This document shows positions 1,345-28,768 of a stretch of 32,000 nt of DNA, piece by piece. Positions within the stretch are counted from its first letter, which is position 1, and each line of letters starts with the position of its first letter. The stretch spans positions 109,840 through 141,839 of the forward strand of contig JBIINK010000001.1 of assembly GCA_044337515.1 (NCBI GenBank), written 5' to 3'. Below the pieces are notes generated by a model, which was not told the DNA's origin, did not search any database, and worked only from the letters and a program-made list of their open reading frames with translations. This stretch comes from Sphingobacteriales bacterium. Its GTDB lineage: Bacteria > Bacteroidota > Bacteroidia > Sphingobacteriales > Sphingobacteriaceae. Both the position numbers and the translations under genes were made by a program.

Positions 1345-1364
1345 ATATGCTGATATGCTAATGG
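1345..1364. repeat. Octamer array of the agcat family, reverse orientation (atgctgat atgctaat)
   Basis: Two 8-bp units read directly. Same word family as 2221-2256, 2608-2642, 3091-3182 and 24262-24297. Confidence 0.6.
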
Positions 1365-1365
1365 A

Positions 1366-2181
1366 TTATTTGTAGAAGATTTTGGTTAAAGTTTGGTAGT
1401 TATCTCGATAAGATTTTTCAAAAAAAGATTGAGTTTCTGGAAATAGTAAATAAGAATAGGTGGTTAGTCCATATGGTGGTGTTCCATCGTAGAGGTATTC
1501 CATTTTTTCAACAAGGTTTTTAGATGCTCTGCCATATCTTAAGTGAGGGGATAAGTTATAGCAATTATAATCTAATGGATTTTCAATAAGACCATACTGA
1601 AAATTGGTGTTAGAACTTCCCATTAGTTCATTATGCCTAAATTCTTTAGATATAACTGCATTAAGGTTACCTTCAACCCATTTATAATAATAATTTCTAA
1701 TTGATTTAATAGGCATTTCTCCAGCATTGCTAAGACGTATGCTTTTACTGTAGTTTAAATAGTTGTTGTCATCATATTGATAAAAAACACTATCATACTC
1801 CGTAGAATTATTAAAACGTTTTACATACCTAATTACAAAATGATTGGAATTGAATTGATATTCATTAGTAATGATATTGTCTAAATTATTTTCTATTATG
1901 ACTAAATTATAACCTGTCGATTGATAGGTTTTTAATGTTGTAGGTACTAAGTTTTCTTGCCCTTCAACTCGTTCATACCATTGTTCTGTAGAATTTCTTT
2001 TGTCTTCAGAATAAGTAAATTTCTTAGCAAATACTGGTATTGTATCTAGATTTGCAGTTAAGCTATATAATACAACACTATCAATATCTTTTCCGCTAAA
2101 ATAAGTTACACCGACACTTTCCTCCTTAGTGCAACCTAAAAACAAAACAGAAATAACAAGTGCAAGATACCTCATTATCAT
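1366..2181 (-). CDS. Hypothetical lipoprotein
   Basis: 271-aa ORF with a lipobox-type N-terminus (LALVISVLFLGC/TKEE). No family recognised. Confidence 0.55.
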   Translation of the reverse strand: MIMRYLALVISVLFLGCTKEESVGVTYFSGKDIDSVVLYSLTANLDTIPVFAKKFTYSEDKRNSTEQWYERVEGQENLVPTTLKTYQSTGYNLVIIENNLDNIITNEYQFNSNHFVIRYVKRFNNSTEYDSVFYQYDDNNYLNYSKSIRLSNAGEMPIKSIRNYYYKWVEGNLNAVISKEFRHNELMGSSNTNFQYGLIENPLDYNCYNLSPHLRYGRASKNLVEKMEYLYDGTPPYGLTTYSYLLFPETQSFFEKSYRDNYQTLTKIFYK

Positions 2182-2220
2182 TTTTGAGATTTGAAAACAT
2201 TTATAAATTATCTCTATTTA

Positions 2221-2256
2221 ATTAGCATGCCAGCATATTAGCATACTAGCATATTA
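2221..2256. repeat. Octamer array NNNagcat x4, forward orientation
   Basis: attagcat gccagcat attagcat actagcat, read directly in the spacer between two minus-strand genes. Confidence 0.8.
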
Positions 2257-2258
2257 AC

Positions 2259-2570
2259 CTATGCTTGCGCAGTTGGTCCGCCGAAGTTCATCGGGAATGC
2301 AGTTTGCTCTTCTAGTTTTACTTTGCCGTGTACATCTTCATACTTGCGAATGTTATCAGCTAATGCCGACATTAATCTTTTCGCATGTTGAGGAGTTAAG
2401 ATAATTCTTGATTTTACTTTTGCCTTTGGCACACCTGGCATCATACGAATAAAATCGATAATGAACTCCGCATTTGAATGTGTGATGATAGCTAAATTAG
2501 AATATATCCCCTCTGCAATTTCCTCACTTAATTCAATGTTAATTTGGTTTTGATCTACTTGTTCTTCCAT
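2259..2570 (-). CDS. DUF3467-family protein
   Basis: 103-aa ORF. IELSEEIAEGIYSNLAIITHSNAEFIIDFIRMMPGVPKAKVKSRIILTPQHAKRL matches the conserved core I recall for DUF3467. Confidence 0.7.
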   Translation of the reverse strand: MEEQVDQNQINIELSEEIAEGIYSNLAIITHSNAEFIIDFIRMMPGVPKAKVKSRIILTPQHAKRLMSALADNIRKYEDVHGKVKLEEQTAFPMNFGGPTAQA

Positions 2571-2607
2571 GATAATGATTAATTTATTAGTGACAAATAT
2601 AATAGTT

Positions 2608-2642
2608 AGTATGCTGATTTGCTAATATGCTAGTATACTGGT
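2608..2642. repeat. Octamer array atgctNNN x4, reverse orientation of the agcat family
   Basis: atgctgat ttgctaat atgctagt atactggt, inverted relative to the arrays at 2221-2256 and 3091-3182. Confidence 0.75.
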
Positions 2643-2992
2643 TAATGCGAAGCATTTTTTTTAGCGGTGGAGATTGATTTTGATAATATTTTTTGAATCG
2701 ATAAGACATCATCAAAGAGCTCTTTGTTTAATTCTAAGTACTCTTTATCTCTTATAACATTAAGCTAATAAGAGGTTTCATTTGCTTCTTTTGATGCAAT
2801 TTTTAACTTATGTATAAAATCATTTGAGCTTTCGGAATGCATCGATTCACTTACATTTGCAGCAATTGAGGTTGCAGACTTGGATATTTGATTCGCAATG
2901 AATTTCAATCCCAGTTTTTCTAACTCTTGCCCAATATCAAGAGCCTTCAAGCTAAACTTGTAGCTTATATTGTATAAAATAGATTCTTTCAT
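2642..2992 (-). pseudogene. Four-helix-bundle protein (23S rRNA intervening-sequence protein family) interrupted by an in-frame TAG
   Basis: The 75-aa ORF 2765-2992 ends ...KLKIASKEANETSY then TAG (2765-2767). The same frame continues LNVIRDKEYLELNKELFDDVLSIQKILSKSISTAKKNASH to TAA at 2642-2644. Total is 351 nt, or 117 codons including both stops, which is the normal family size. The TAG sits where the family has a conserved Trp (E-x-x-Y-W-L). Confidence 0.65.
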
Positions 2993-3090
2993 AAAGCAAA
3001 ACTATTTGAAAGAATCTACCTACACAACTGCATTTAAGCAGGTTTTTTTATCATCCTTAATATATCATCCTGCATTTATCAGTATTAGAC

Positions 3091-3182
3091 ACCAGCATAT
3101 TAGCATACCAGCATATTAGCACACCAGCATACTATCATATTAAAACATCAGCATACTATCATATCAGCATACTAGCATATTA
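3091..3182. repeat. Long octamer array of the agcat family, about 11 units, forward orientation
   Basis: accagcat attagcat accagcat attagcac accagcat actatcat attaaaac atcagcat actatcat atcagcat actagcat. It ends at the stop codon of the adaptor gene. Confidence 0.85.
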
Positions 3183-4340
3183 ATCCTCGCTCTTATTCTT
3201 CATCGCCATCAATATCTTATACGACCCTGCATCAACAATTTTAGCTTGTTTTAATTCTTCAGATGGATCTACAATCTCAATAAATGGTTTCTCTGAAACA
3301 CCTGTGGTTACTGGGTACAACTCGAATGTTGAATCGTTTTGTGCAACTACTAAGTAGTTTTTGTTTTCATAACGAATTACAGAACTTTCTTTTACCACCA
3401 TTGATTTTTTTAATGCTGATTCTACTTCAACATTCATAAACATACCTGGTATTAATTGGTGGTCTTCTTTTTCAAAATGACAATGAACATCAATTGCTTT
3501 GTTCTCATTTAATCCTCTGCCTACTAAAATTATTTCAGCATTGTATTTTACATCCGGGTGTTCATTGGTAAATGCAACAACCTTTTGCCCAACTGCTATA
3601 TATGGAATATCTTTTTGGAAGATTTGAATGTTTAAATGAATGTCGTTCGGATTAATTAATTCGAACATTACATCATTCGAGCTAATGTATTTACCTACGT
3701 TAACATTTACTTTAGAAATATATCCATCAATAGGAGAGTGTATCTCCATGCGTGAACTAATTTTTTCGGCAGTGAATTTTTGTGGGTCGATGCCAATTAA
3801 TTTTAATTTTTCTCCATACGAGCGAACTTGTATTTCAAGAATTTCCACATTGCTTTTCGATTCTAAGTATGTCTTTTCTGCAATTGCTTTTTCTGTATAC
3901 AATTCTTTTTGTTTCTTGAAATCAATTCTAGCAAGCTCCATTTTGTTCTTTGCGCTTAAGTAGTCCTGTCCCATTTGTATGTATTGTTGATCTTCCAGTA
4001 CAGCAAGTAATTCTCCTTTTCTTACTTTCAAACCTGGAAGTAGTTCGGTGTACTTAAGATAACCGCCGAATGGAGCAGATATATTCACTAAACTTTGTGG
4101 TGGCACATCTATACTTCCATTTGCACGTATGATGTTTCCTAAGCTTCGTTCTTCGATTTTAATAATACTCATTGGAATGTTAGAAAGTTGAGTTTTATTT
4201 AAAATGATAACGTCTTCACTAGCCACAACTTTAGCATCTGTTGCTGTTGGTTCTTTTGATTGGCAGGCTTGCAATGCAATGCCTAATACAATTAGATATA
4301 ATATATTTCTTTTCATGATAGTTCGATTCTTAAAGTTCAT
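3180..4340 (-). CDS. Efflux RND periplasmic adaptor subunit (HlyD/CzcB-like membrane fusion protein)
   Basis: 386-aa ORF with a lipoprotein-type signal (GIALQAC/QSKE). It has coiled-coil and beta-barrel MFP-like organisation. It overlaps the upstream RND pump gene by 11 nt, which suggests an operon. Confidence 0.75.
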   Translation of the reverse strand: MNFKNRTIMKRNILYLIVLGIALQACQSKEPTATDAKVVASEDVIILNKTQLSNIPMSIIKIEERSLGNIIRANGSIDVPPQSLVNISAPFGGYLKYTELLPGLKVRKGELLAVLEDQQYIQMGQDYLSAKNKMELARIDFKKQKELYTEKAIAEKTYLESKSNVEILEIQVRSYGEKLKLIGIDPQKFTAEKISSRMEIHSPIDGYISKVNVNVGKYISSNDVMFELINPNDIHLNIQIFQKDIPYIAVGQKVVAFTNEHPDVKYNAEIILVGRGLNENKAIDVHCHFEKEDHQLIPGMFMNVEVESALKKSMVVKESSVIRYENKNYLVVAQNDSTFELYPVTTGVSEKPFIEIVDPSEELKQAKIVDAGSYKILMAMKNKSED

Positions 4341-7300
4341 TGTTCAATACTTTTAATTCGGTAAAATGTTGCAAACTTTGTTGGTACAAGTTCATGTACA
4401 TATCGTATGTACTTAATGTTTGATTGATATACATGGCCCAGTTCAAATAACTTATGTTCCCTTTATCTGTTTGCATCTGCGATGATTTCACAGCGTTTAG
4501 CATATTGGGTATTACATCCGATTTGTATTTCATTAGCAGTACTTGCTCTTCTTTACACAAGTTCGATAATCTATTTTTTTCTAACAATAATCGATCGGTT
4601 TCGTACTCGTAATTTGTTCTACTTTTCTCCCAATTTGCTTTAGCAATTTTATTTTTCGAATGCTGTGAGCCAAAAAATATCGGCACACTTAATCCTGCAC
4701 TAACAAATTGAAAACGATCTGATGATGTTGCTGGGTTCCCAGAAAGTATAGTGCCTTTCATACTTTGATTCGTATAGCCTAATCGAATGTCGGGCATTAA
4801 TTTAGATCGTTCTGTTTTCCAAGAGTACTCGTAACTCAATTGCTCCGCTTTTAAGCGTTGTAAGAAGTATGAATTAATCTCTTTGTTCTGTTCTATACCT
4901 TCATTGAAAAACGAAAGTGATGCATCAGGACTTAAATTATTTTTTTCACCTAATAACCAATTGAATTTTTCTTGATGAGATGCTAAAGTAACTTTACTAA
5001 GTTGAAGTTCTTTTTGAATGTTTAGGAATGCATTATCCAACATCGATTTTTCCATAGGGTCAATCAATCCCTTTTCGAATTGCAAATCAGCACTTCTCTT
5101 GCTATTGCTGAGTTGTTCGTACACACTGCTCAGGAACTTTACTTTCTCCGTTAACAAGTTTATCGAATGAAATTGAAAATACAATTCAGAAAGCACCTCT
5201 TGTTTTTTCATTTCTGTTTGTGCTGTTAATACATCTTTTTGATTAGAAATGTATTTTGAATTATTGACATAATACGTAGGGAAATGAAAGCTTTGCGATA
5301 CCGAATACGACATATCTTTTTCATTCGAGTTATATTGTCCTTGCTGTATTGATAAATCTGTTTTAGGAATTTCGTAGCCTTGAGCTTTGCTATTCCTTAC
5401 CGTATATAGATAATCAGATTCAGCTTTTAGCAAACTATTTTGTTGCAGAACTTTTGTTTTTGCATCAGTCCAAGTGATAGTTTTTTGTGCATTAGCTACA
5501 TTACCAATTAATAAAAATACAAGTAGAAATATCGCTACCGTATTTTTTGTTTTACTATGTTTCTTCACTTCGCGTTTTGCAAAACCTGCATACAATACTG
5601 GTAATACAAATAGAGTTAAAAGTGTTGCAGTAATTAAACCACCAATCACTACGGTTGCTAGTGGGCGTTGAACTTCTGCACCTGCACCATCACTAATGGC
5701 CATAGGTATAAAACCTAATGATGCTACTGCTGCTGTCATAAGTACCGGACGTAATCTAATTTTTGTTCCTTGTATTACAATTTTGTGAGCATCATGCCAT
5801 CCTTCTTTTCGTAGTCTGTTAAACTCAGCAATTAATACAATACCATTTAATACAGCTACCCCGAATAAGGCAATGAATCCAATACCTGCTGAGATACTAA
5901 ACGGCATACCACGAGAACTCAGTGCAAACACACCACCAATAGCGGATAATGGAATTGCTGAGAAAATTAAAATACTTTGTTGTAAAGATCCAAATGCAAA
6001 ATACAACATCAATAAAATCAATAATAAGGATAAAGGAACGGCAATAGCTAAACGTTTTTTAGCAGCTTCTAAGTTTTCAAATGCACCGCCATAACTAACA
6101 GTATAACCCGTTGGCATTTTTATGTTTGCATTCACTTTCCCTTGTAACTCTTGAACGATACTTTGCACATCTCGACCACGAACATTGAAACCTATGATGA
6201 TTCTTCGTCGTGCATCTTCTCGTTGTATTTGATTTGGTCCATCAATAATATCAATACTAGCTAATAAACGAAGTGGGATAGAAGCTCCATTTGCAGTTGG
6301 AATTAATAAATTCTCTAAACTTCCCATATCGTTTTTGATGGATGCATCCATACGTACTACTAAATCGAATTGCTTTTCTCCTTCATAAATTTTCCCGCTC
6401 ACATCACCAGCATACGCTGAACGTACAATATGATTAAGCTCATTTATATTAACTCCATATTGAGCCATTGCTTCTCTTTTATATTGAATAACGATTTGAG
6501 GCATCCCTCCAATGGCTTCTATGTATAAGTCTTTCGCGCCATCTACAGTATTAATCACATCTCCTAATTGATGTGCATATGCGGCTAAAGTATCGAGGTC
6601 TTCGCCAAATATTTTACAAACCACATCTTGACGAGCGCCAGTCATTAATTCATTGAAACGCATTTGAACTGGGAACTGAAATCCAGCGGTTACTCCTGGG
6701 ATGTTTGCAATTTCTGCACTCATTTTTTCTGCAAGTTCATCGTATGTTTTTGCACTAGTCCATTCTTTTTTATTTTTAAGAATCACCATCATATCACTTG
6801 CCTCTATTGGCATAGGGTCGGTCGGTATTTCCCCACTTCCTATTTTTGTAACTACTTTTTCTACTTCTGGGAATTTTTCTAAAAGTATTTTTGCAGTAGC
6901 TTGTGTAGTTTGAATGGTGGTATTTAAATTACTACCCGTAAGTACACGGGTATCAACCGCAAAATCTCCTTCTTCTAATTCAGGAATAAATTCCCCACCC
7001 ATATTTGCTAAAATAATTATTGCGATAACAAATGCGCTAAAGGCAGCAATTACGGCAGTCTTTGGGTAACCCAAAACTTTGGTAAGTGCAGCTTGATAAA
7101 ATCTTTCAATTTTTATCATTACACGATCTGAAATATTCGGTTCGTGTTTTAATTTTTTACTGATAAATAGCGAGCTCATCATCGGCACATAAGTAAGCGA
7201 CATAATGAATGCCCCAAGTAATGCGAATGCAACAGTAGATGCCATAGGACCGAACATCTTACCTTCAATTCCTTGTAATGAAAATATAGGAAGATAAACT

Positions 7301-8682
7301 ACTAAGATGATGATTTGTCCAAACACCGCAGAGTTCATCATTTTTGATGCGGAACCATTTACTTCCGTATTCATCTCTTCTTGTGTGAGGGAGGTAATTC
7401 CGCTAAATCGTTTGGAGTGACTGAGCTGATGCATAATGGCCTCCACAATGATGACGGCTCCATCTACTATCAAGCCGAAGTCGATGGCTCCTAAGCTCAT
7501 TAAATTGCCACTCACACCAAATAAATTCATCATGATGATGGCGAATAACATGGCAAGTGGAATAACAGATGCAACGATTAATCCCGCTCTTAAATTTCCT
7601 AAGAAAATCACGAGTACGAAAATTACAATCAGTGCTCCTTCAATTAAGTTTTTTTCTACGGTACCAATTGCATTGCCAACCATTTTACTACGATCGAGGA
7701 AAGCTTCTAATTCAATGCCTTCGGGTAATGTTTTTCGAATCTCTTCAATTCTGTTTTTAACATTTACAATTACTTCTGAAGAGTTAGCACCTTTCAACAT
7801 CATTACTACAGCACCTGCTACTTCTCCTTCGGCATTATAACACATCGCACCATAGCGAATGGCTTCAGAGAATTGAACTTTCGCCACATCACGTATTCGC
7901 AATGGATTTCCATTCGAATTGTTTTTAATCACCACGTTCTCTATGTCCTTGAAATTTTTCAAAAGACCTTCAGATCGTATATATAATATCCCTTCACCAC
8001 GCTCAATGTAAGCTCCGCCTGTATTGGCGTTGTTGGTATTTATGGCATTGAACACATCTGTAATGGTTACTCCATTGGCATGTAATTGTGCTGGGTTGAT
8101 ACTAACTTCGTATTGCTTTAATGAACCTCCAAAGCTCGACACATCTGCAACACCTTTTACCCCGATTAATTGTCGGCGGATAACCCAGTCTTGTATGGTT
8201 CGTAAATCAGCTAAAGAGTATTTGTTTTCATATCCTTTTTTCGGACGAACAACGTATTGATAAATTTCACCTAAACCGGTGGTTACAGGAGCAAGCTCCG
8301 GATTGCCAACACCATTCGGTAAATCATTTTGTACTTTTAATAAACGCTCCGCGATTTGTTGCCTAGCCCAGTAAATATCTACATCGTCTTCAAAAACAAT
8401 GGTTACTAGCGATAATCCAAATCGAGAAAAACTTCTGATTTTTTTTATGCCAGGGATATTACTATTGGCTTGCTCTATTGGGAAGGTTATTAATCGTTCA
8501 ACGTCAGGCGCCCCAAGTGCCGGACTAATCGTAATAATTTGTGCCTGATTATCTGTAATATCTGGTACAGCATCAATTGGCAGTCGAGTCGCTTCGTAAA
8601 TACCCCAAACAATTAAGCCTAAGGTAAAAAGTGCGATTATCAGTTTCTGACGAACAGAAAATGAAATAATAGCATTTAACAT
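4330..8682 (-). CDS. CusA/CzcA-family heavy-metal RND permease fused in frame to a TolC/CzcC-like outer-membrane factor
   Basis: 1450-aa ORF. The N-terminal ~1038 aa look like CzcA (MLNAIISFSVRQKLII...RLPIDAVPDITDNQAQIIT..., 12-TM RND layout). Residues from V1039 read (V/M)KKHSKTKNTVAIFLLVFLLIGNVANA/QKTITW..., followed by ~390 aa of TolC-like heptad-rich sequence. Confidence 0.8.
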   Translation of the reverse strand: MLNAIISFSVRQKLIIALFTLGLIVWGIYEATRLPIDAVPDITDNQAQIITISPALGAPDVERLITFPIEQANSNIPGIKKIRSFSRFGLSLVTIVFEDDVDIYWARQQIAERLLKVQNDLPNGVGNPELAPVTTGLGEIYQYVVRPKKGYENKYSLADLRTIQDWVIRRQLIGVKGVADVSSFGGSLKQYEVSINPAQLHANGVTITDVFNAINTNNANTGGAYIERGEGILYIRSEGLLKNFKDIENVVIKNNSNGNPLRIRDVAKVQFSEAIRYGAMCYNAEGEVAGAVVMMLKGANSSEVIVNVKNRIEEIRKTLPEGIELEAFLDRSKMVGNAIGTVEKNLIEGALIVIFVLVIFLGNLRAGLIVASVIPLAMLFAIIMMNLFGVSGNLMSLGAIDFGLIVDGAVIIVEAIMHQLSHSKRFSGITSLTQEEMNTEVNGSASKMMNSAVFGQIIILVVYLPIFSLQGIEGKMFGPMASTVAFALLGAFIMSLTYVPMMSSLFISKKLKHEPNISDRVMIKIERFYQAALTKVLGYPKTAVIAAFSAFVIAIIILANMGGEFIPELEEGDFAVDTRVLTGSNLNTTIQTTQATAKILLEKFPEVEKVVTKIGSGEIPTDPMPIEASDMMVILKNKKEWTSAKTYDELAEKMSAEIANIPGVTAGFQFPVQMRFNELMTGARQDVVCKIFGEDLDTLAAYAHQLGDVINTVDGAKDLYIEAIGGMPQIVIQYKREAMAQYGVNINELNHIVRSAYAGDVSGKIYEGEKQFDLVVRMDASIKNDMGSLENLLIPTANGASIPLRLLASIDIIDGPNQIQREDARRRIIIGFNVRGRDVQSIVQELQGKVNANIKMPTGYTVSYGGAFENLEAAKKRLAIAVPLSLLLILLMLYFAFGSLQQSILIFSAIPLSAIGGVFALSSRGMPFSISAGIGFIALFGVAVLNGIVLIAEFNRLRKEGWHDAHKIVIQGTKIRLRPVLMTAAVASLGFIPMAISDGAGAEVQRPLATVVIGGLITATLLTLFVLPVLYAGFAKREVKKHSKTKNTVAIFLLVFLLIGNVANAQKTITWTDAKTKVLQQNSLLKAESDYLYTVRNSKAQGYEIPKTDLSIQQGQYNSNEKDMSYSVSQSFHFPTYYVNNSKYISNQKDVLTAQTEMKKQEVLSELYFQFHSINLLTEKVKFLSSVYEQLSNSKRSADLQFEKGLIDPMEKSMLDNAFLNIQKELQLSKVTLASHQEKFNWLLGEKNNLSPDASLSFFNEGIEQNKEINSYFLQRLKAEQLSYEYSWKTERSKLMPDIRLGYTNQSMKGTILSGNPATSSDRFQFVSAGLSVPIFFGSQHSKNKIAKANWEKSRTNYEYETDRLLLEKNRLSNLCKEEQVLLMKYKSDVIPNMLNAVKSSQMQTDKGNISYLNWAMYINQTLSTYDMYMNLYQQSLQHFTELKVLNNEL

Positions 8683-8685
8683 ATG

Positions 8686-8713
8686 TAAATTCTAAATTTT
8701 AAATTCTAAATTA
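8686..8713. repeat. Heptamer array taaattN x4 abutting the RND pump start codon
   Basis: taaattc taaattt taaattc taaatta, beginning 4 nt from the ATG (complement of 8680-8682). Confidence 0.7.
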
Positions 8714-8758
8714 TTTATCTGTACAAAGTACAATGTAAATTGTATTAAGTACAAGTTT

Positions 8759-8814
8759 CGAGTTACGAACTACGAGTTTCGAGTTACGAACTACGAGTTA
8801 CGAGTTACGAAATT
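8759..8814. repeat. Heptamer array cgaNNtN x8, with a higher-order 21-bp unit
   Basis: cgagtta cgaacta cgagttt cgagtta cgaacta cgagtta cgagtta cgaaatt. It overlaps the last codons and stop of the ORF ending at 8798. Confidence 0.8.
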
Positions 8815-9187: not shown

Positions 9188-9274
9188 CAATTCAAAAATA
9201 GTAAAAAATGGCTCAAAATTGGTTTCAAGTAATATGAAATAAACTGAACAGGGATTTTTAGCCCCCAAACAAGA

Positions 9275-9312
9275 TTTCTACACTTCGACGTTTCTACACT
9301 TCTATATTTCTA
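9275..9312. repeat. Period-8/16 direct repeats (tttctacacttc x2 plus a partial copy) in a divergent spacer
   Basis: tttctaca cttcgacg tttctaca cttctata tttctaaa. The word ttctaca(c) recurs at 27497-27513. Confidence 0.65.
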
Positions 9313-9333
9313 AAATCACTATCTTCGTGCCCA

Positions 9334-10743: not shown

Positions 10744-10792
10744 CACAAAAAATAATTAGATTTCTTTATTTTGTATAAAGATTAATAGCACT

Positions 10793-17238: not shown

Positions 17239-17306
17239 ACTACTTAATATTTGCTGTAAATTAAATATATTTACTGATAATTCTTACAAAACAAAAATAA
17301 TAACTT

Positions 17307-22132: not shown

Positions 22133-22667
22133 GTATACTTTAATTATTTCAATTTTTGCACTTGCATCTTGCGACACTCGTTATACTATACAAGATTTAG
22201 CAGAGCAACAACGCATTGCCGAAAACTCACGAAGAGCCTATTCTACAAAGGATCCCGTGAATATTAAGTATAAAAATAATGCAGCTTCAATAGATTATGC
22301 AGTAGGGAAGGGTAATGAAGAATTTGTATTATCAATGACTACTGACCCAAAATCAAAAAAAGATGTTATTGATGGTTCTTTAAATGTTAGTAAAGAAGCA
22401 AAAGATGCTGTTAACTTAGCGATGAAATACTATCGCCGTTCTCAAGAATTCTTATATGTTGACGATTACAATTCAGCATTAGATTATGTTGATGAGTCTT
22501 TAAAAATTATTGAAACTGCAGAAGCATTATCTTTAAAAGGTAGTGTGCTATACGTGATGGGTAACGAAGAAAAAGCAAAAGAACTTTGGATGCAAGCCGC
22601 TAAACTTGATCCAGAAATTAGAGTGCCTTCTGCAAAAGAATTAAAAGACATTACTTCAAAAAAATAA
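22098..22667 (+). CDS. TPR-repeat lipoprotein
   Basis: 189-aa ORF overlapping the previous gene by 35 nt. Lipobox is LIISIFALASC/DTR. TPR-like helices are in the C-terminal half (AMKYYRRSQEFLYVDDYNSALDYVDESLKI...GNEEKAKELWMQAAKLDPE). Confidence 0.6.
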   Translation: MDMDSALYTGLKYTLIISIFALASCDTRYTIQDLAEQQRIAENSRRAYSTKDPVNIKYKNNAASIDYAVGKGNEEFVLSMTTDPKSKKDVIDGSLNVSKEAKDAVNLAMKYYRRSQEFLYVDDYNSALDYVDESLKIIETAEALSLKGSVLYVMGNEEKAKELWMQAAKLDPEIRVPSAKELKDITSKK

Positions 22668-22669
22668 AT

Positions 22670-23500
22670 ATGAAATTTTCCATCGGAACATTTTTAGGAT
22701 TCTCAATCTGTACTGCATTAATTATTTTAGGTATTATGGATACTGCTGGGGCAATACGCTTAGAGCATTACATTCCTAACATGATGAAAAATCCTTTCAT
22801 ACATATCGCAGGTTTTTTCATTGTATTTGGTGGAGTAATGGCATCTATGTTTGTAATGTATCCAGTAAATGTAGTGTTTGGTGCATTAGGTAAATTCGGA
22901 CAATTATTCAGTCAAACAAAACATAAAGCAATTTCTATAAATGAAGATGTAGAAATGGTAGTTGGTTGGGCTGATCGCATTAAAAAAGATAAGAAAGAAT
23001 TTTTGAATGATATTGCACAAAACGAGAAAGATTCGTTCGTGCGATTATTGTTTGATTTGTATAATACTAATTACTCTTCTTCGGATATCCGAACTATGGG
23101 CGAAACTAGTATTGATAAAGACTATAGCCAATCTATTCAAATGTCGGATGTGTTTCATGCTATGGCGAACTCGGCGCCAGCGTTTGGTATGTTGGGTACG
23201 GTGTTGGGTATGATTGTGATGTTGAATAATTTAAATGACCCTTCGAATATTGGTCCAGGTATTTCTACAGGATTAATAGGTACTCTTTATGGTGTTGCAT
23301 CAGCTAATTTATTTTTCATCCCATTGTCTAAAAAAATTAGATATAATGGTTTACATACGCAACGTAGAGAAATTATTATTTTAGAAGGGATGTTATTGAT
23401 TAAAGAGAATAAACCATCAATGGTAATTCGCGACCAATTAATGTCGTTTGTAAGCAGAGATGATTCTGATGCTTCAACTAAAACAGCAACAGCAAAATAA
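22670..23500 (+). CDS. motA: MotA/PomA-type stator channel protein (MotA/TolQ/ExbB superfamily)
   Basis: 276-aa ORF with two N-terminal TMs, a ~100-aa cytoplasmic loop, and then TM3/TM4 carrying the conserved prolines (SAPAFGMLGTVLGMIVML; GLIGTLYGVASANLFFIPLSKKI). The MotA-type C-terminus reads REIIILEGMLLIKENKPSMVIRDQLMSFV. Confidence 0.8.
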   Translation: MKFSIGTFLGFSICTALIILGIMDTAGAIRLEHYIPNMMKNPFIHIAGFFIVFGGVMASMFVMYPVNVVFGALGKFGQLFSQTKHKAISINEDVEMVVGWADRIKKDKKEFLNDIAQNEKDSFVRLLFDLYNTNYSSSDIRTMGETSIDKDYSQSIQMSDVFHAMANSAPAFGMLGTVLGMIVMLNNLNDPSNIGPGISTGLIGTLYGVASANLFFIPLSKKIRYNGLHTQRREIIILEGMLLIKENKPSMVIRDQLMSFVSRDDSDASTKTATAK

Positions 23501-24186
23501 TGTCGGGAGAAGATAACAGACGTAAGCTAAAAAAGAATATCCGAGAGGAGGTTCATGCGGAGCTTTGGCTAATTACGTATGCCGATTTGATTACCTTACT
23601 GTTATGTTTTTTCATTCTATTATTTGCATCAGCAAACGTTGACCAAAACGTTTGGGATCGTGTAAAGGCTAGTTATAGTTCTAAAGTAAAAAACAAAACC
23701 ATATCAACTCCATTAAGTGAAATTAAACATCAACTTGATTCCATGTTGATGAAAGAAGTGAAAGATAAAAGTCTAGAAATCGAAAATAAAGACAACGCCA
23801 TTAACATGCGTTTCTTAAGTAATTCTTTTTACAATAGTGGCGACGCTAAACTGCTCCCAGAAGGAAAAGAAATTGTAGACAAAATTTTCGAAATTATTAA
23901 TGCCGTAAGCAAAGAGAAAAAAGCAAATTTTAGTCTCGACGTTGAAGGACATACCGATGATAACCCTATTGCCACCAAAGAATTTCCTTCAAACTGGGAA
24001 CTCTCTGTTGCACGTGCTTCTAATGTTGTGCGTTACCTAATTGATAGAGGTATGGAACCCCAACGATTAAAAGCTTCAGGTTATGCAGATACACAACCCG
24101 TGGTATCTAACCGAAACGGTAAAGGCGAACCTATTCCTGCAAATCAATCTGTTAATAGAAGGGTTGTGTTGAGGATACATTACTAA
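23500..24186 (+). CDS. motB: MotB-type stator protein with OmpA-like peptidoglycan-binding domain
   Basis: The ATG overlaps the motA-like stop (TAATG). The single TM has the channel Asp in the MotB signature WLITYADLITLLLCFFILLFA. The C-terminal OmpA/MotB domain reads FYNSGDAKLLPEGKEIVDKI...LDVEGHTDDNPI...SNWELSVARASNVVRYL...GYADTQPV...NQSVNRRVVLRI. Confidence 0.85.
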   Translation: MSGEDNRRKLKKNIREEVHAELWLITYADLITLLLCFFILLFASANVDQNVWDRVKASYSSKVKNKTISTPLSEIKHQLDSMLMKEVKDKSLEIENKDNAINMRFLSNSFYNSGDAKLLPEGKEIVDKIFEIINAVSKEKKANFSLDVEGHTDDNPIATKEFPSNWELSVARASNVVRYLIDRGMEPQRLKASGYADTQPVVSNRNGKGEPIPANQSVNRRVVLRIHY

Positions 24187-24261
24187 ACTAAACTTAATTT
24201 ATTTCATTTCATTTATGTCAAACCCCTCAACTGCGCTTCGCTCCGTTCGGGGACCGTCACT

Positions 24262-24297
24262 AATAGCATAATAGCATAATATCATATTAGCATATTA
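24262..24297. repeat. Octamer array aatagcat x4 (agcat family), forward orientation
   Basis: aatagcat aatagcat aatatcat attagcat, located between the motB-like gene and pgk. Confidence 0.75.
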
Positions 24298-24301
24298 TTG
24301 T

Positions 24302-24327: not shown

Positions 24328-25518
24328 ATGAAAACCATCGATTCCATCAATTTCCAAGGTAAACGCGCATTAATTCGTGTAGATTTTAATGTACCATTAA
24401 ATGCTGAATTTCAAATTACAGACGATACTCGTATGCAAGCTGCAGTTCCAACAATTAAGAAAATATTAAACGATGGTGGTTCAGTAGTGTTAATGTCGCA
24501 TTTAGGTAGGCCGAAAGAAGGACCTGTAGAAAAATACTCTTTAAATCATATTGTTAAACACTTAGCCGAACTAACTGGTGCAACTATTTCGTTTGCTAAC
24601 GATTGCATTTCGGATGATTCTTATGCTAAATCATCAGCTTTAAAAGCTGGAGAGATTTTATTGTTAGAAAATTTACGTTTTTATAAAGAAGAAGAAAAAG
24701 GGGATGAGGCTTTTGCTGAAAAATTAGCTAAGCATGGTGATGTTTATGTAAACGATGCCTTTGGTACAGCACACCGTGCACATGCTTCGACAACCATCGT
24801 AGCTGAGTTTTTCCCTGATGCAAAAGTGTTCGGTTATGTAATGGCCAACGAATTAAAAAATGCAGAAAAAGTAATGAACCATGCTGATCGTCCATTTACA
24901 GCAATTATGGGTGGTGCAAAAGTTTCAGATAAAATTTTATTGATTGAGAAATTATTAGACACCGTAAACTCCATTATTATAGGTGGTGGTATGGCGTATA
25001 CTTTTGCGAAAGCAATGGGAGGTTCTATTGGTGGTTCATTAGTAGAAGAAGATAAATTACCATTAGCATTACAACTTATTGAAAAAGCAAAAGCAAAAGG
25101 AGTGAACCTAGCTTTGCCTATTGATTCTATTATTGCTGATGCGTTCAATAACGATGCTAATATCTCTAAAGCTAATAACGATTCTATTCCTGATGGTTGG
25201 ATGGGTTTAGATATTGGCGAAAATTCTACCAAAACGTTTAAAGAAATTATAGGTAACTCTAAAACTATTTTATGGAATGGTCCGATGGGTGTTTTTGAAA
25301 TGAGCAATTTTGAAAATGGCACCAAGCAAATTGCCTTAGCAGTTGTTGAAGCAACAAAGAACGGAGCATTCTCTTTAATTGGTGGTGGCGATTCTGCCGC
25401 TGCTGTAGCGAAGTTTAATTTAACAGATGATGTTTCTTACGTATCAACTGGTGGTGGTGCTTTACTCGAATATATGGAGGGGAAGGTGTTGCCGGGAGTA
25501 GCCGCTATTCTTAATTAG
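24328..25518 (+). CDS. pgk: Phosphoglycerate kinase
   Basis: The ORF track opens at the TTG at 24298. The ATG at 24328 gives the canonical N-terminus [24 protein letters not shown]. Also present are [20 protein letters not shown] and GGGDSAAAV. Confidence 0.95.
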
Positions 25519-25544
25519 GAATTAAGAATTAGGAATTAGGAATT
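25513..25544. repeat. Heptamer array aattagg x4.5, including the pgk last codon and stop
   Basis: aattagg aattaag aattagg aattagg aatt. The pgk codon AAT and stop TAG (25516-25518) lie in unit 1. Confidence 0.85.
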
Positions 25545-25553: not shown

Positions 25554-25585
25554 TGTCGGAGTGTTTTCATTCCGACATTTTTTTT
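25554..25585 (+). terminator. Rho-independent terminator of pgk
   Basis: tgtcggagtg (25554-25563) pairs with cattccgaca (25568-25577). This is a 10-bp stem with one G-U pair and a tttt tetraloop, followed by an 8-T run (25578-25585). Confidence 0.85.
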
Positions 25586-25637
25586 GTTTTTTAAGTTGTT
25601 CCCTATTTTAAGAATATCACCTACGCAGCACTAAATT

Positions 25638-25700
25638 CCTAATTCCTAATTCCTAATTCCTAATTCCTAATTCCTAATTTGTAATTCCTAATTCCTAATT
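25638..25700. repeat. Heptamer array cctaatt x9, the inverted partner of 25513-25544, including the gap stop and last four codons
   Basis: Nine phased units with one variant (tgtaatt). The gap stop (complement of 25688-25690) and codons K-I-R-N are encoded by the array. Confidence 0.9.
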
Positions 25701-26686
25701 TTTATACAGAGTTCCACCAATCGGTTCGAGTAGCCCCATTCGTTATCGTACCAGCCTACTACTTTAACCAGTTTACCTACTATGGAAGTCAACTGAGCAT
25801 CGAAGATGCAGGAGTGAGGGTTTTCTTGTATGTCGATGGAGACAATCGGATCTTCAGTATATTCTAAAATTCCTTTCAATTCATTTTCGGAAGAGCGTTT
25901 AAACGCAGCATTAATTTCGTCTACCGTCACTTTTTTATTTAATACGCAAGTGAAATCGGTTAAGGAACCATTGGGTACAGGAACACGAATTCCGGCGCCT
26001 CCGAGTTTCCCTTCTAGGTGAGGGAAAATACTGGTAATTGCTTTTGCTGCACCAGTACTTGTAGGAATCATCGACACTGCTGCTGCACGTGCTCTGCGTA
26101 AATCGCGGTGAGGAGCATCGTGTAAGTTTTGATCGCCAGTATACGAATGCACTGTAGTGATGTAACCATCTTCTATTCCACCTAAATCATCTAATACTTT
26201 TACCATGGGTGCCACATTGTTGGTAGTGCATGATGCATTGGAGATAATGGTATGTTTTTCGTTTAATATAGAATCATTAATACCGAGCACAATGGTTGGT
26301 ATATCTTTACCTTCTGGAGGTGCGGAAAGGATTACTTGTTTCGCCCCAGCTTGTAAGTGTAAATTAGCCTTCTCACGACTTAGAAACTTTCCGGTCGACT
26401 CTATGACTACATCTACCCCTAAACTGCCCCAAGGGAGCGCGCTAGGGTCTTTTTCAGCGAATGTTTTAATCAATTGACCATTGATGAGTAAACCATCCGC
26501 GGTAGCCACTACTGAGCCCTGAAAGCCACGATGAATAGAATCGTATTTAAATAGATGAGCAAGTGTAGCGTTATCGGTAATGTCGTTTATGGCAACAACC
26601 TCTATTGCAGGGTTTAATAGGGCATTTCTAAGAAATACTCTTCCAATTCGTCCGAAGCCGTTAATGGCTACTTTTACTTTGCTCAT
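25688..26686 (-). CDS. gap: Type I glyceraldehyde-3-phosphate dehydrogenase
   Basis: 332-aa ORF with NGFGRIGR, the catalytic SNASCTTN, the WYDNEWGYS C-terminal motif, and typical length. Confidence 0.95.
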   Translation of the reverse strand: MSKVKVAINGFGRIGRVFLRNALLNPAIEVVAINDITDNATLAHLFKYDSIHRGFQGSVVATADGLLINGQLIKTFAEKDPSALPWGSLGVDVVIESTGKFLSREKANLHLQAGAKQVILSAPPEGKDIPTIVLGINDSILNEKHTIISNASCTTNNVAPMVKVLDDLGGIEDGYITTVHSYTGDQNLHDAPHRDLRRARAAAVSMIPTSTGAAKAITSIFPHLEGKLGGAGIRVPVPNGSLTDFTCVLNKKVTVDEINAAFKRSSENELKGILEYTEDPIVSIDIQENPHSCIFDAQLTSIVGKLVKVVGWYDNEWGYSNRLVELCIKIRN

Positions 26687-26892: not shown

Positions 26893-26964
26893 GGCCCGTT
26901 CGTCTAGGGGTTAGGACAGGAGATTTTCATTCTTCAAACAGGGGTTCGATTCCCCTACGGGCTA
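26893..26964 (+). tRNA. tRNA-Glu (anticodon UUC), CCA not encoded
   Basis: I folded the cloverleaf by hand. The acceptor stem ggcccgt/acgggct has a G1-U72 wobble. The D stem is gtct/ggac. The anticodon stem ggaga/tcttc carries loop tt-TTC-at. The T arm is agggg-ttcgatt-cccct. It is collinear with E. coli tRNA-Glu as I recall it. Length is 72 nt including discriminator A. Confidence 0.9.
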
Positions 26965-26970
26965 CGACCA

Positions 26971-27005
26971 ATGTGCAAATGCGTAAATATGCAAATGTGC
27001 AAATG
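26971..27005. repeat. Octamer array atgNgcaa x4 between the tRNA and its terminator
   Basis: atgtgcaa atgcgtaa atatgcaa atgtgcaa atg. Confidence 0.75.
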
Positions 27006-27034
27006 AAGGCTTCAACATAGTTGAAGCCTTTTTT
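27006..27034 (+). terminator. Rho-independent terminator after tRNA-Glu
   Basis: aaggcttcaac (27006-27016) pairs with gttgaagcctt (20-30 of the 270xx block) around a 3-nt loop, giving an 11-bp perfect stem. A T-run extends to 27034. Confidence 0.85.
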
Positions 27035-27055
27035 GTTTCGCGCAACGAGTATCAA

Positions 27056-27143
27056 ATTGTCGAATTGTCGAATTGTCGAATTGTCGAATTGTCGAAGGGT
27101 AGAAATGTCGAATAGTCGAAGTGTAGAACTGTAGAATTTTCGA
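27056..27143. repeat. Octamer array of 11 phased units (attgtcga x5, decaying to NNNgtaga and attttcga)
   Basis: attgtcga x5, then agggtaga aatgtcga atagtcga agtgtaga actgtaga attttcga, with phase kept throughout. Confidence 0.9.
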
Positions 27144-27466
27144 AAAATCTATCCCAAGAACCCTAAGTATCGAAATCGTGAAGCAATACTATGAAAGATG
27201 AAAAAAGTAGAAAACATCACGATTCAGCGGAGCGAAGCGTAGCTAATATTGGTATTTTAAAGAAGAATAGAAGTGATTTTTTTTTCACTATTGTTAATTT
27301 TATTCTTTTAAATACCAATATTCAAAAAAAGACGAAATGCTACTATTCAAAAAGAAAAGAAGATTTTTATTCTTATAAATACCAATATTCAAAAAAAGAG
27401 TCTTATTGTTCTTTAAAATATGAAAATTCAAAAAGAAGACTTTTATTCTTTTTTCATATTATTGTA

Positions 27467-27513
27467 TCACGATTTCTATACTTCTATAGTTCTAAGATTC
27501 TACAGTTCTACAC
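27467..27513. repeat. Inverted partner of the right end of the 27056-27182 block (tcacgatttctatactt ... ttctaNNg octamers)
   Basis: attctacagttctacac (27497-27513) is the exact reverse complement of gtgtagaactgtagaat (27121-27137). tcacgatttctatactt (27467-27483) matches the reverse complement of aagtatcgaaatcgtga (27166-27182) with one mismatch. Confidence 0.8.
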
Positions 27514-27526
27514 TTTACGCAATAGA

Positions 27527-28060
27527 CTAAAACTTATAGTACAAGGCAAGTTCACCGGTTACATTCAAGCCTTTGAAATTATCATAAGCAGCATATCCTG
27601 CCATGAAATTTAAACCAACTCGTTTAGCAATAATAATTTCTACACCAAAACCTAATCCATTATTAAAGTAAGACTCAGTAACTCGTTGTGTAGTACTAAC
27701 CGTAGGGTTATTAGGATCAAATACATATTGTAAACTAGAATCGTAATAAAAGTGATTCGCTTGGTATAAATAGAAGTTAGTGCTTTTGTTTTCATTCAAC
27801 ATGTATAAAAATGTTGCGCCTAAACTGTATCTCGTGGTTTCACTATTTTTAAAAGGAGCAAAATTAACTTGTGTACCAAAACGTTTTGGAACATATCGGA
27901 ATGATAATCCGTAACCTGTAGCAAAACCTGCACCACCACCAACACCGTACTTGAACTTAGTTAGGGGTTCTTGTTCATTTGTGTTTTGAGCATTTGCTTG
28001 AACACTTACAAATAAAAATAAAATAAAACTGATTATTAGAATTTTGGAGATCGTTTTCAT
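27527..28060 (-). CDS. Small outer-membrane beta-barrel protein (OmpW/OmpA-beta-barrel-like)
   Basis: 177-aa ORF. The signal peptide is MKTISKILIISFILFLFVSVQANA/Q. It has Gly/aromatic-rich beta strands and a C-terminal ...GELALYYKF. Confidence 0.7.
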   Translation of the reverse strand: MKTISKILIISFILFLFVSVQANAQNTNEQEPLTKFKYGVGGGAGFATGYGLSFRYVPKRFGTQVNFAPFKNSETTRYSLGATFLYMLNENKSTNFYLYQANHFYYDSSLQYVFDPNNPTVSTTQRVTESYFNNGLGFGVEIIIAKRVGLNFMAGYAAYDNFKGLNVTGELALYYKF

Positions 28061-28129
28061 AATATTAGAATTAATTGTTAAAATTAATACTAATTCAACT
28101 AATAAACGATAAATATGGTATTGCTGTTC

Positions 28130-28681
28130 TTAGTAGGTCTTTTTGACGATGTCCTTTACAATATTATCTAATTCTAAGGTTAAATCCTGGATAGTTAATA
28201 AGATTGTTTTTTGCTCTTCAGTACCCTCGAATTTTTGAATATCAAAAACCTCTAATAGGCCTAAAATATTTACAATAGGGGCACGTACAATATGAGATTG
28301 TATATAGGCTATTTTCTCTAAGCTTTCTTCAGAAGTGATGTCTTTAAAATATGCAGCTGCATACATTATGCCATCTTCTTCGAAATTATTAGAAGCTGAT
28401 ATTTTTACAGGAACTCTATTTCCATTTTGATGTAAAACATAGGTATTTATTTCTTTGTACCCTTCAGTAGAAGTGAATTCTTTGAATTTAGCTATGATGA
28501 ATTCCAAATCCTCAGGCGGATGTAAAGTAGTTTGATTTTTTCCAATCAACTCTTCGCGAGAATAACCAACCAATAGACAAGCAACATCATTTGCGTATAC
28601 AATCAATCCAGTACTTGATTCTGCGATGAATAATGCATCGGTACTGCTCTTAAGTAATGAGCGTAATAATCCCATATGCAA
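28130..28681 (-). CDS. PAS-domain protein with C-terminal H-box-like helix and no ATPase domain
   Basis: 183-aa ORF. The PAS core reads ALFIAESSTGLIVYANDVACLLVGYSREELIGKNQTTLHPPED...GNRVPVKISA. It is followed by IAYIQSHIVRAPIVNILGLLEVF, which resembles a HisKA dimerisation/phospho-acceptor helix. Confidence 0.65.
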   Translation of the reverse strand: MHMGLLRSLLKSSTDALFIAESSTGLIVYANDVACLLVGYSREELIGKNQTTLHPPEDLEFIIAKFKEFTSTEGYKEINTYVLHQNGNRVPVKISASNNFEEDGIMYAAAYFKDITSEESLEKIAYIQSHIVRAPIVNILGLLEVFDIQKFEGTEEQKTILLTIQDLTLELDNIVKDIVKKTY

Positions 28682-28727
28682 AGGAAGTTAATGTAATTGC
28701 GATTATCATTACTACATTTAGTAGTAT

Positions 28728-28768
28728 TGATAATGAATAGGTAATGAATAGGTAATGAATAGGTAATA
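28728..28768. repeat. 11-bp tandem repeat (aggtaatgaat) x3.7 in a divergent promoter spacer
   Basis: tgataatgaat aggtaatgaat aggtaatgaat aggtaata, located between the PAS gene (-) and the TPR kinase gene (+). Confidence 0.85.

Follow-up and report, generated by a model that had tools for sequence, protein, structure and literature searches.

Most of the intergenic spacers in a 32,000-nt stretch of a Sphingobacteriales bacterium genome (GenBank assembly GCA_044337515.1, contig JBIINK010000001.1, positions 109,840 to 141,839; the whole stretch is called the window here) contain short tandem arrays of 7-, 8- or 11-nt words. We conclude, with a probability of roughly 0.6, that these arrays are long-unit microsatellites, similar to the long simple sequence repeats (LSSRs) and short tandemly repeated repetitive (STRR) sequences of other bacteria, that have expanded in one uncultured freshwater sub-clade of the Sphingobacteriales. 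Comparison with close strains and more distant relatives shows that the arrays arise in place from short local seeds, gain and lose whole units, and evolve in concert. It also shows that where arrays form inverted pairs, the resulting stems persist at the same spacers across lineages despite replacement of the words. An earlier note, made from the letters of this DNA, had proposed a local, slippage-like source for the arrays, and this origin is well supported by whole-unit differences between strains, words that change in place, local seeds, and perfect units standing beside decayed ones.

The window is 34% GC and gene-dense. When we searched with its phosphoglycerate kinase (PGK) and CCA enzyme, the closest genomes were uncultured freshwater Sphingobacteriales, and with JGI metagenome contigs that are 100% identical to the window the sampled genome reaches 46.7 kb. 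Orthologous regions from relatives at a range of distances were collected through homologues of one hypothetical protein and of the CCA enzyme, which is encoded by cca. The loci that recur in the text are:

L097: 98% CCA-enzyme protein identity to the window
L098: 88% CCA-enzyme identity
L221: 86% CCA-enzyme identity
L099: 84% CCA-enzyme identity
L222: 83% CCA-enzyme identity
L100: 82% CCA-enzyme identity
L093: 85% identity to the window in the hypothetical protein
L095 and L002: one metagenome-assembled genome (MAG), 70% identity in the hypothetical protein

Arrays of the window and their variation between strains

Arrays were called with Tandem Repeats Finder (TRF; period 6-12, at least three copies, score of at least 40), and an independent period scan was run alongside. 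The TRF rule gives 15 arrays in the window, with periods of 7, 8 or 11, whereas 60 dinucleotide-preserving shuffles average 0.10 arrays and never have more than 1. The earlier note had suggested comparing intergenic with coding sequence, and in the window this comparison is clear: intergenic DNA makes up 8.5% of the bases and holds all of the arrays (15/15, binomial P = 9e-17). About 27% of the intergenic DNA is covered by arrays and the majority of spacers are occupied. Octamers are as frequent as heptamers, and copy number spans 2.5 to 12, the recurrent value of about 4 that had been noted earlier being partly a detection floor. All of the arrays listed in that note were recovered by both methods within a few bases, its word-repeat regions at 8721-8755 and 11378-11472 are present as well, and the four spacers it named as array-free (10744-10792, 16134-16204, 17239-17306 and 19020-19223) are free of arrays. 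Two of these four are divergent promoter spacers, a type that is mostly array-free. In the flanks of the window we found three further array sites, in the rplJ|rplL spacer, in the rpoB|rpoC spacer, and directly after the rpoC stop. The arrays and the terminators beside them are:

1289-1324: bidirectional intrinsic terminator of canonical form, with A-tract, GC stem and T-tract, separating the porin gene from gene 1366-2181
1345-1364: AGCAYAYY-family octamer, 2.5 copies, beyond the bidirectional terminator and 1 nt from the stop of gene 1366-2181 (-); orthologous arrays in L095 and L093
2221-2256: AGCAYAYY octamer, 4.5 copies, 16-nt higher-order unit, 2 nt from the DUF3467 stop
2608-2642: AGCAYAYY octamer, 4.4 copies, inverted orientation, 37 nt upstream of the DUF3467 start; complementary to 2221-2256 and 3083-3182
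3083-3182: AGCAYAYY octamer, 12 copies, 16/24-nt higher-order units, overlapping the stop of the HlyD-family gene
8686-8712: TAAATTC heptamer, 3.9 copies, an A/U-rich leader 3 nt upstream of the RND pump start; related AATTYAN arrays at this position also in L095, L097, L098 and L221
8721-8755: short hairpin of the words GTACAATGTAAA and GTATTAAGTAC, which also occur at 11378-11420
8750-8811: TACGAGT/TTCGAGT heptamer, 8.7 copies, 21-nt higher-order unit, 95% identity, overlapping gene 8798-9268 (-) at its 3' end; L095, L097 and L098 have orthologous arrays
9274-9312: TTCTACAC-family octamer, 4.9 copies, 21 nt upstream of the cca start; L093, L095, L097, L098 and L221 have this family in the same spacer
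11374-11475 (+): inverted ATGTATT / CATAATA heptamer pair, a hairpin (z -3.7) that fills the PRiA4-like|miaA spacer and overlaps the miaA start
15234-15266 / 15280-15310 (-): inverted pair of TAAATTG (4.7 copies) and CAATTTA (4.4 copies), filling the dapD|GT4 spacer from dapD stop to GT4 start
24261-24298: TAATAGCA octamer (AGCAYAYY family), 4.2-4.8 copies, 29 nt upstream of the pgk start; locus L003 has 4.5 copies of TAGTGTGC at this position
25513-25544 (+): AATTAGG heptamer, 4.6 copies, opening with the last codon and stop of pgk (AAT TAG); canonical terminator next
25555-25585 (+): pgk's canonical intrinsic terminator, a GC stem with T-tract that separates the AATTAGG and CCTAATT arrays
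25634-25700 (-): CCTAATT heptamer (AATTAGG on the gap sense strand), 9.6 copies, supplying the last four codons and stop of gap
26970-27005 (+): AATGTGCA octamer, 4.5 copies, 4 nt after tRNA-Glu (26893-26965); canonical terminator 27006-27035 next
27055-27144: AATTGTCG / GTAGAA octamer, 11.2 copies, five perfect units followed by decayed units
27145-27473: interior between inverted arrays, with nested inverted repeats, a 39/67-bp variable-number tandem repeat and a ~70-nt dispersed element; varies between strains
27474-27512: TTCTACAG octamer, 4.9 copies, inverted partner of 27119-27144, 14 nt from the stop of gene 27527-28060 (-)
28731-28767: TAATGAATAGG 11-mer, 3.4 copies, units 100% identical, in a divergent promoter spacer (z -1.5)

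Although the longest open reading frame (ORF) of pgk opens at a TTG, gene callers and relatives take the ATG at 24328 (396 aa), and with this start the array at 24261-24298 is in the 5' leader and is not coding.

Exact-protein look-ups returned the same loci from other samples and assemblers (JGI, ENA, Logan, NCBI), and several independent contigs are identical to the window over 1-11 kb, arrays included. The earlier note had also suggested looking for unit-number polymorphism in related strains, and we found it: among strains that are 98-100% identical across the pgk-gap-tRNA region, the CCTAATT array is shorter by 28 bp (4 units) or 7 bp (1 unit), and the AATTGTCG array is shorter by 16 bp (2 units), the loss falling inside its five perfect units. 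Whole-unit indels of this kind are the signature of slippage or unequal exchange. Tandem repeats can be mis-joined by short-read assemblers, and some contigs from the same sample do break in this region, as might be expected if the arrays were an assembly or consensus artefact, which the earlier note said would count against its proposal. However, the arrays are only 20-100 bp long, which is below read length, different pipelines applied to different samples give the same arrays base for base, and the variants are separated by clean multiples of the unit. Because of these unit-multiple differences and the identical arrays elsewhere, we regard an artefact as ruled out for all practical purposes.

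At gene ends, the arrays do not stop exactly at codons as had been thought: several of them enter the last one to four codons of genes. The array supplies the stop codon in pgk, gap, the HlyD gene and the hypothetical gene hyp156, and one array overlaps the start of miaA. Their absence from coding interiors, which was part of the same claim, agrees with the intergenic position of all 15. Stop triplets are present in most arrays, all three frames are closed on at least one strand in 14/17 of them, and 7 of the 9 arrays that abut the stop of a protein gene have stop triplets in all three sense frames. Given a period that is not a multiple of 3 and these stop triplets, ORFs end sharply at arrays and no array survives inside a gene. 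The end of the gap product, GAPDH, is a good illustration. After ...YSNRLVEL, the protein closes with CIKIRN, VTRFS, VTRIS or CILIK and a stop in loci L001-L004 and the window (25688-25705), following the neighbouring array, and this tail is array-encoded in the window, L001 and L002.

Array birth, word turnover and hairpins in relatives

The window, L093, L095 and L097 have 4.7-5.8 arrays per 10 kb, L098, L221 and L222 have 2.3-3.3, and L099 and L100 have about 0-1. In an order-wide set of 80 PGK-centred loci, the window is the densest of those at least 10 kb long, the majority of loci are array-free, and in most of those other genera pgk is followed by a plain canonical terminator. The cultured Daejeonella rubra DSM 24536 does bear arrays, with an inverted heptamer pair in locus L026 (1429-1518).

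Several spacers record how arrays begin and change. The seed AAT-TAG at the end of pgk is kept in the window, L001 and L002, where it heads an array of AATTAGG (window) or of AATTAGCC (L002). After rpoC, L099 has two units, ATGTGCTC ATGTAGCA, while L095 has a GTGTGCTC array and the window clade has an ATATGCTR array. The leader of the pump gene contains four copies of AATTTAG in the window, seven of AATTATG in L097, and seven of TAATTCA in L095, and ahead of it all three have a TCGTA/ACGTA-type heptamer array, in which the window and L095 show a higher-order unit of 21 nt. In L098, TAAATTG has become TAAGTTG in both arms of the dapD|GT4 pair, which is a concerted change.

The dapD|GT4 spacer also has a hairpin that outlasts its words. 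In the window, the two arms form a perfect A/U-rich stem of 31 bp (-33.2 kcal/mol), and across six lineages a hairpin of 21-31 bp is built at this spacer from five words, with z from -5.3 to -11.7:

window and L097: TAAATTG (z -8.6 in the window)
L098: TAAGTTG (z -5.6)
L221: AATTATG (z -5.3)
L222: AGTAGCT (z -5.3)
L099: TACGTAT/TCAGTAT/TCCGTAT, then a U-rich tail (z -11.7)

In the rpoB|rpoC spacer, a two-part stem (5-6 bp, a 2-nt bulge, then 12-13 bp) is formed from GAGTTGT in the window or GAGAATT in L093 and L095, with z of -4 to -5.7, and the PRiA4|miaA hairpin is made of three different words in the window, L095 and L221. The suggestion in the earlier note that self-complementary structure is selected for is partly supported: these three spacers, which keep a strong hairpin despite word replacement, speak for it, and the roughly half of the arrays that are solitary and unstructured speak against it.

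The paired arrays resemble intrinsic terminators in that they are stable stem-loops right after stop codons, and ordinary hairpins or terminators are found at their counterparts in L099 and L222. They differ in being stems of 21-31 bp that are A/U-rich and usually lack a U-tract, rather than a GC stem with a U-tract, the U-rich tail of the L099 dapD|GT4 hairpin being the exception. They also occur beside canonical terminators: the order is stop, array, canonical GC-stem/T-tract terminator after pgk, tRNA-Glu, hyp271 and rpoC, and in L095 inverted arrays flank the rpoC terminator in a structure of -55 kcal/mol. Stems that are A/U-rich, mostly free of U-tracts, located next to true terminators and in one case inside rpoBC argue for processing, stability or insulation and not for termination, so we do not retain the idea that they are simple terminators. 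A function for the paired-array hairpins in one of these roles is plausible, judging from sequence and predicted folding.

The seeds from which arrays grow include the context of a stop codon, proto-repeats of two copies, and arms of hairpins already in place, and concerted evolution comes about as a variant unit sweeps through a whole array. We propose that replication slippage or unequal exchange is the mechanism. By reading-frame logic, periods that are not a multiple of 3 would shift and close frames, and selection would confine the arrays to intergenic DNA, where they could end up adjoining the last codons of genes or even taking their place. A hairpin with arrays for both arms would be a long A/U-rich stem with several pairing registers. 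Such stems may be kept as RNA structures, either 3'-end or RNase III-type processing stems or insulators between cistrons, and template switching from arm to arm may also help to keep the arms complementary. Solitary arrays would mostly be tolerated by-products, some of them forming unstructured A/U-rich leaders, and, based on three cases, arrays may act as portable homology for the insertion or inversion of cassettes.

A number of points weigh against this account. The dapD|GT4 spacer of L100 is just 12 nt long, so the hairpin is dispensable there, and the PRiA4|miaA gap is about 20 nt in L098 and L100, while the two genes overlap in L099 and L222. Solitary arrays, about half of the total, fold no better than shuffled sequence (z of 0, +1.3, -1.5 and -1.5). 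Template switching could keep the arms complementary mechanically, with no need for selection, and any RNA-level role is deduced from the sequence. Passive slippage predicts no recurrent word families, and those described below hint at dispersal or at a sequence-specific factor. The account also gives no reason why this clade is affected or why the units are 7-8 nt, and the sampled part of the genome amounts to about 47 kb.

Mobile pieces, shared words and other explanations

Some arrays are associated with a small gene of the 23S-rRNA intervening sequence (IVS) protein family, which we take to be a relative of Avd of diversity-generating retroelements (DGR):

2645-2992 (-): four-helix-bundle gene (TIGR02436/PF05635, 23S-rRNA-IVS-protein family), with a TGG to TAG nonsense change in the window
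L097 3174-3524, L095 9080-9430 and L221 6330-6668: copies of the TIGR02436/PF05635 gene elsewhere

In every case the gene is located in the loop between inverted octamer arrays, and two different spacers are involved. Between DUF3467 and HlyD, in the window, L097 and L095, the gene has AGCAT arrays as its arms (in L095 it is inverted), and upstream of cca in L221 its arms are TTCTACNT arrays. A CTGCAT-N4-ATGCAG hairpin precedes the gene in the window, L097 and L221. In relatives without the gene, the DUF3467|HlyD site is occupied by a plain array hairpin (L098) or by a canonical terminator (L099, L222). The gene and its arms look like a mobile, IVS-like cassette. A search with a small, narrow hidden Markov model found no copies beyond the known ones in all of the collected loci, and tblastn gave no signal of a decayed four-helix-bundle gene within 27145-27473.

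There is also a dispersed element of ~70 nt (AGCTACGCT...GCTGAATCGTGA...GCTTCACGATTTC), which adjoins the TTCTACAG arrays in the window at 27165-27240 (-) and is present as two tandem copies within the cca-upstream array of L097 (9790-9936). Synteny changes between window 1-9333 and L093, L095, L097-L100, L221 and L222 all fall at array-bearing junctions. They consist of the presence or absence of the porin, a 271-aa hypothetical gene, the IVP gene and the RND block, and of flips in DUF3467 orientation.

Two side observations concern these regions. Compared with window 27145-27473, locus L082 (540-1320) has ~300 extra nt with inverted ends of their own (AAAAAGCAAGTCA). A small GC-rich palindromic element similar to repetitive extragenic palindromes (REPs), with a GGAGCGAAGCG / GAGCGGAGCCGAAG core, is found in the window at 24215-24255 and 27222-27236, in L001 at 38-78 and ~1345-1375, and in L097 at ~3620-3660; the window and L001 have the copy upstream of pgk in opposite orientations, and the L097 copy is inside an AGCAT array.

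Words are shared between spacers to a certain extent. AGCAYAYY octamers are found in at least six spacers of this genome, with GAGCACAC as a transition variant, and at orthologous and other spacers in L093, L095, L097, L098, L222 and L003. TTCTACA/GTCGAA words occur in two spacers and so do GTACAATGTAAA/GTATTAAGTAC, and the words are therefore not as spacer-specific as was first described, even though most arrays do have words of their own. Within the clade there are 54 octamer word pairs with at most one mismatch, versus 4.0 +/- 2.0 in letter-shuffled controls, and much of this excess is due to orthology and inverted partners. Among distant genera, using the PGK-centred loci, which have no word bias, the count is 19 versus 12.4 +/- 3.4. 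We considered a phylum-wide word code and rejected it, since sharing across distant genera is only weakly above these controls. In a scan of metagenome contigs with the exact AGCAT 14-mer AGCATATTAGCATA, ~90% of the matches listed were single chance matches and ~10 were true arrays. The contigs with true arrays, among the matches listed, are 35-54% GC and also contain arrays of ACGAATT, ATGAATT, AAATTAC, GTCGAATT, GGTAATG and AATGTGCA, and all of these co-occurring words are known from the window clade.

The explanation closest to ours would give the arrays no function at all: a slippage-prone or repair-deficient clade would inflate non-coding proto-repeats, and the arms would stay complementary through intramolecular template switching at quasi-palindromes, one arm being copied onto the other. 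Whole-unit polymorphism, a burst restricted to one lineage, the many solitary and unstructured arrays, the relatives that have no hairpin and no evident replacement for it, and the canonical terminators that persist beside arrays all fit with this. We nevertheless find it doubtful, because the same three spacers hold a hairpin through full word replacement in up to six lineages, because the ordinary perfect stem and U-rich tract at dapD|GT4 in L099 suggest a functional hairpin that predates the array-built form, and because the mostly array-free divergent promoter spacers imply that selection shapes the places where arrays persist. If unit number instead tuned promoter spacing or 5'-UTR function, as in the contingency loci of phase-variable bacteria, one would expect the polymorphism that we see, and some arrays are indeed in 5' leaders or divergent promoter spacers. 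However, most spacers are occupied and they adjoin housekeeping genes (rpoBC, pgk, gap, miaA, cca, tRNA), polymorphism was observed 3' of gap and downstream of tRNA-Glu, the often imperfect units set these arrays apart from typical hypermutable switches, and the organism is a free-living lake bacterium, so we consider contingency loci very improbable.

Two further explanations seem unlikely to us. The arrays could be terminal inverted repeats, footprints or attachment sequences of small IVS-like elements or of MITEs (miniature inverted-repeat transposable elements), spread by transposition or cassette recombination and not born locally. In favor are the ~70-nt element next to or inside arrays, the TIGR02436/PF05635 gene between inverted arrays at two spacers with its conserved upstream hairpin and its inversion in L095, the synteny breaks at array-bearing junctions, and the further nested insertion in L082. 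On the other hand, most words are locus-specific, traceable to local sequence and evolving in place in orthologous spacers, the cassette arms match the word family already present at that spacer in cassette-free relatives, no transposase or target-site duplication was seen, and changes of -1, -2 and -4 units suit slippage better. With respect to MITEs in particular, only the ~70-nt element recurs (in the window and L097), no target-site duplication was recognised, and most paired arrays have no common interior. The opinion of the earlier note that a transposed family is less likely is thus right for most arrays, which are local, and too sweeping for some word families, which are dispersed and linked to mobile pieces. 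Alternatively, arrays such as the AGCAUAUU repeat could be multivalent sites at which a protein binds RNA or DNA in a sequence-specific way, as a regulator acting post-transcriptionally or on the nucleoid, and the limited common vocabulary would mirror its specificity. Such a protein would fit with the recurrence of AGCAYAYY in at least six spacers, at both orthologous and non-orthologous sites of three related lineages, and in metagenome contigs that are unrelated but have other words in common with the window. It would also fit with the several arrays located 0-30 nt from start codons, and binding has been hypothesized before for the TAACTGA repeats (PMC4679880). Yet a specific binder would not tolerate the swapping of unrelated words at one orthologous spacer (five at dapD|GT4), arrays have both orientations relative to the adjacent gene, word sharing between distant genera barely exceeds the controls, and we identified no candidate protein. 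A more ambitious possibility, which we also think improbable though slightly less so, is that the arrays are more than passive and form an organised system. In such a system, complementary, register-tolerant arms would bracket genes and operons as an mRNA-level counterpart of rRNA processing stems and the 23S IVS, with RNase III-type stems. The same arms would double as homology that captures and inverts small cassettes, that with the TIGR02436/PF05635 gene included, and the recurrence of AGCAYAYY and xxxAATT words in unrelated contigs would reflect a dedicated factor or an array-generating activity beyond slippage.

Curvature or helical phasing was rejected by reasoning, given that periods of 7 and 8 do not stay in phase with 10.5 bp. 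Transposon excision footprints with a fixed target-duplication length were retained only as a minor component of the mobile-element explanation, as slippage accounts better for the multi-unit deletions and for the heptamer bias in other phyla.

Described repeat classes and the surrounding genes

The earlier note did not recognise the arrays as a described class of repeat, and this view is not supported. They fall within the broad class of long-unit simple sequence repeats, without fitting a named family, and are an unusually dense example of it. STRR sequences, which we take to be the tandem heptanucleotides of Calothrix, have the consensus words CCCCAGT, TTGGTCA and CAACAGT. None of these three words, nor GGGAATC, forms a tandem array in the 46.7 kb. 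The STRR host is a heterocystous cyanobacterium, whereas the genomes nearest to the window are Sphingobacteriales.

The Calothrix heptanucleotides are cited in PMC4692102, and the same paper describes GGGAATC arrays of Xanthomonas and Nostoc that are located near the 3' end of the upstream ORF. Like the window arrays, these are tandem heptanucleotides, mainly intergenic and near the upstream ORF 3' end, that are kept between the same genes in related species while length and sequence vary. They differ from the window arrays in using one or a few genome-wide words, where the window has many, some local and some in families, and the window arrays have no G-quadruplex potential. According to PMC4679880 and PMC4692102, which summarise Mrazek et al. 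2007, long simple sequence repeats with 5-11-nt units are dominated by heptamers, sporadic across phyla, intergenic near the 3' end of the upstream ORF, and attributed to slippage. As in the window, LSSR units are head-to-tail and 7-8 nt long, with heptamers the commonest class, and the repeats are longer than expected by chance, confined to intergenic DNA when the period is not a multiple of 3, and variable in unit number between close strains. The window arrays have each of the LSSR traits: tandem units of 7, 8 or 11 nt, an excess over shuffles (15 vs 0.10), whole-unit indels, and an intergenic position (15/15). They differ in that the window is near saturation, with arrays in ~27% of intergenic DNA and in most spacers, in that inverted pairs are frequent and octamers as common as heptamers, and in that the words are AT-rich in a 34% GC sequence, where the classic LSSR-rich genomes are large and GC-rich.

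Arrays of TAACTGA are known from Beggiatoaceae, Cyanobacteria and five Bacteroidetes, in some of which other heptamer arrays occupy the same spacers, and sister species can lack them (PMC4679880). They are short and mostly intergenic, a few nt from a start codon or just after a stop, and relatives with the same gene order can be without arrays, all as in the window. In contrast, they consist of one dominant word in 169 direct sets and 1 inverted set, while inverted pairs are common in the window; TAACTGA itself occurs in the 46.7 kb as 8 single copies and 0 tandem ones. Like REPs, bacterial interspersed mosaic elements (BIMEs) and MITEs, the window arrays are intergenic, hairpin-capable, located at gene ends and tied to rearrangements. 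Unlike them, the arrays share no 20-40-nt palindrome or interior and have arms of short units with a word that depends on the locus; only the ~70-nt element behaves as a dispersed element. Nor are these CRISPR arrays, since the units are contiguous and 7-11 nt long and there are no 24-48-nt repeats with unique spacers.

The 23S IVS of Coxiella has polymorphic tandem heptamers beside a PF05635 (S23p) ORF, with an RNase III site there (PMC4990558). The window cassette is similar in that its PF05635/TIGR02436 gene occupies the loop of a long stem, which its complementary flanks form, and dissimilar in being located between protein-coding genes and not in 23S rRNA, with arms that belong to the octamer family of that spacer. 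In the papers that we read, we found no description of frequent inverted pairs, positional persistence through word replacement, near-saturation of spacers, or the gene-in-loop arrangement.

These arrays show that, in a narrow clade, long-unit intergenic microsatellites can fill a quarter of the non-coding DNA of a bacterium. They also matter for annotation, as they rewrite the 3' ends of genes (stop codons and C-terminal tails) and close all three phases, and this closure results in sharp ORF boundaries and in spurious ORF calls nearby. The graded relatives record array birth, concerted turnover and loss, as well as ordinary hairpins turning into array-built 'zipper' stems, and thus offer a clean natural system for studying RNA or DNA structure that is kept under wholesale sequence replacement. 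If paired arrays are processing or stability elements, they would count as a kind of intercistronic signal that is new for Bacteroidota, a phylum in which little is known of post-transcriptional signals. In addition, the arrays can be used as strain markers for a repeatedly sampled lake population.

The gene order in the window is phosphate-selective porin, DUF3467 gene, RND efflux pair, cca, miaA, dapD, a FliG/MotAB-like cluster, pgk, gap, tRNA-Glu and sensor kinases. In a scan at Rfam gathering thresholds, tRNA-Glu was the sole match in the window, so that no array is covered by a known RNA family, and there is no rRNA in the window. A consensus scan for sigma-70 promoters and terminators gave counts no higher than expected from shuffles, and such a scan is uninformative for Bacteroidota promoters. 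A 140-aa ORF at 27191-27613 matched no family and is probably spurious.

We also made a few minor observations on the neighbouring genes and on the relatives. The L002 and L095 contigs (GCA_943360385.1, CALRIM02...) are syntenic with the window and 82% identical to it in nucleotide sequence in pgk, and the title of this MAG, 'Rhizobium sp. Q54', is probably wrong. L093 lacks the block IVP-HlyD-pump-hyp156. In the window, an outer-membrane-factor (PF02321) domain is fused to the C-terminus of the AcrB-type RND transporter of 1450 aa at 4330-8682 (-). The cluster at 19224-24186 encodes a FliG-like protein, a 355-aa protein of unknown function, a TPR protein, and MotA/ExbB-like and MotB/OmpA-like proteins. 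The FliG-like protein combines a FliF C-terminal domain with the FliG middle and C domains and scores under the fliG equivalog cut-off, and the cluster is kept in L097-L099, L221 and L222.

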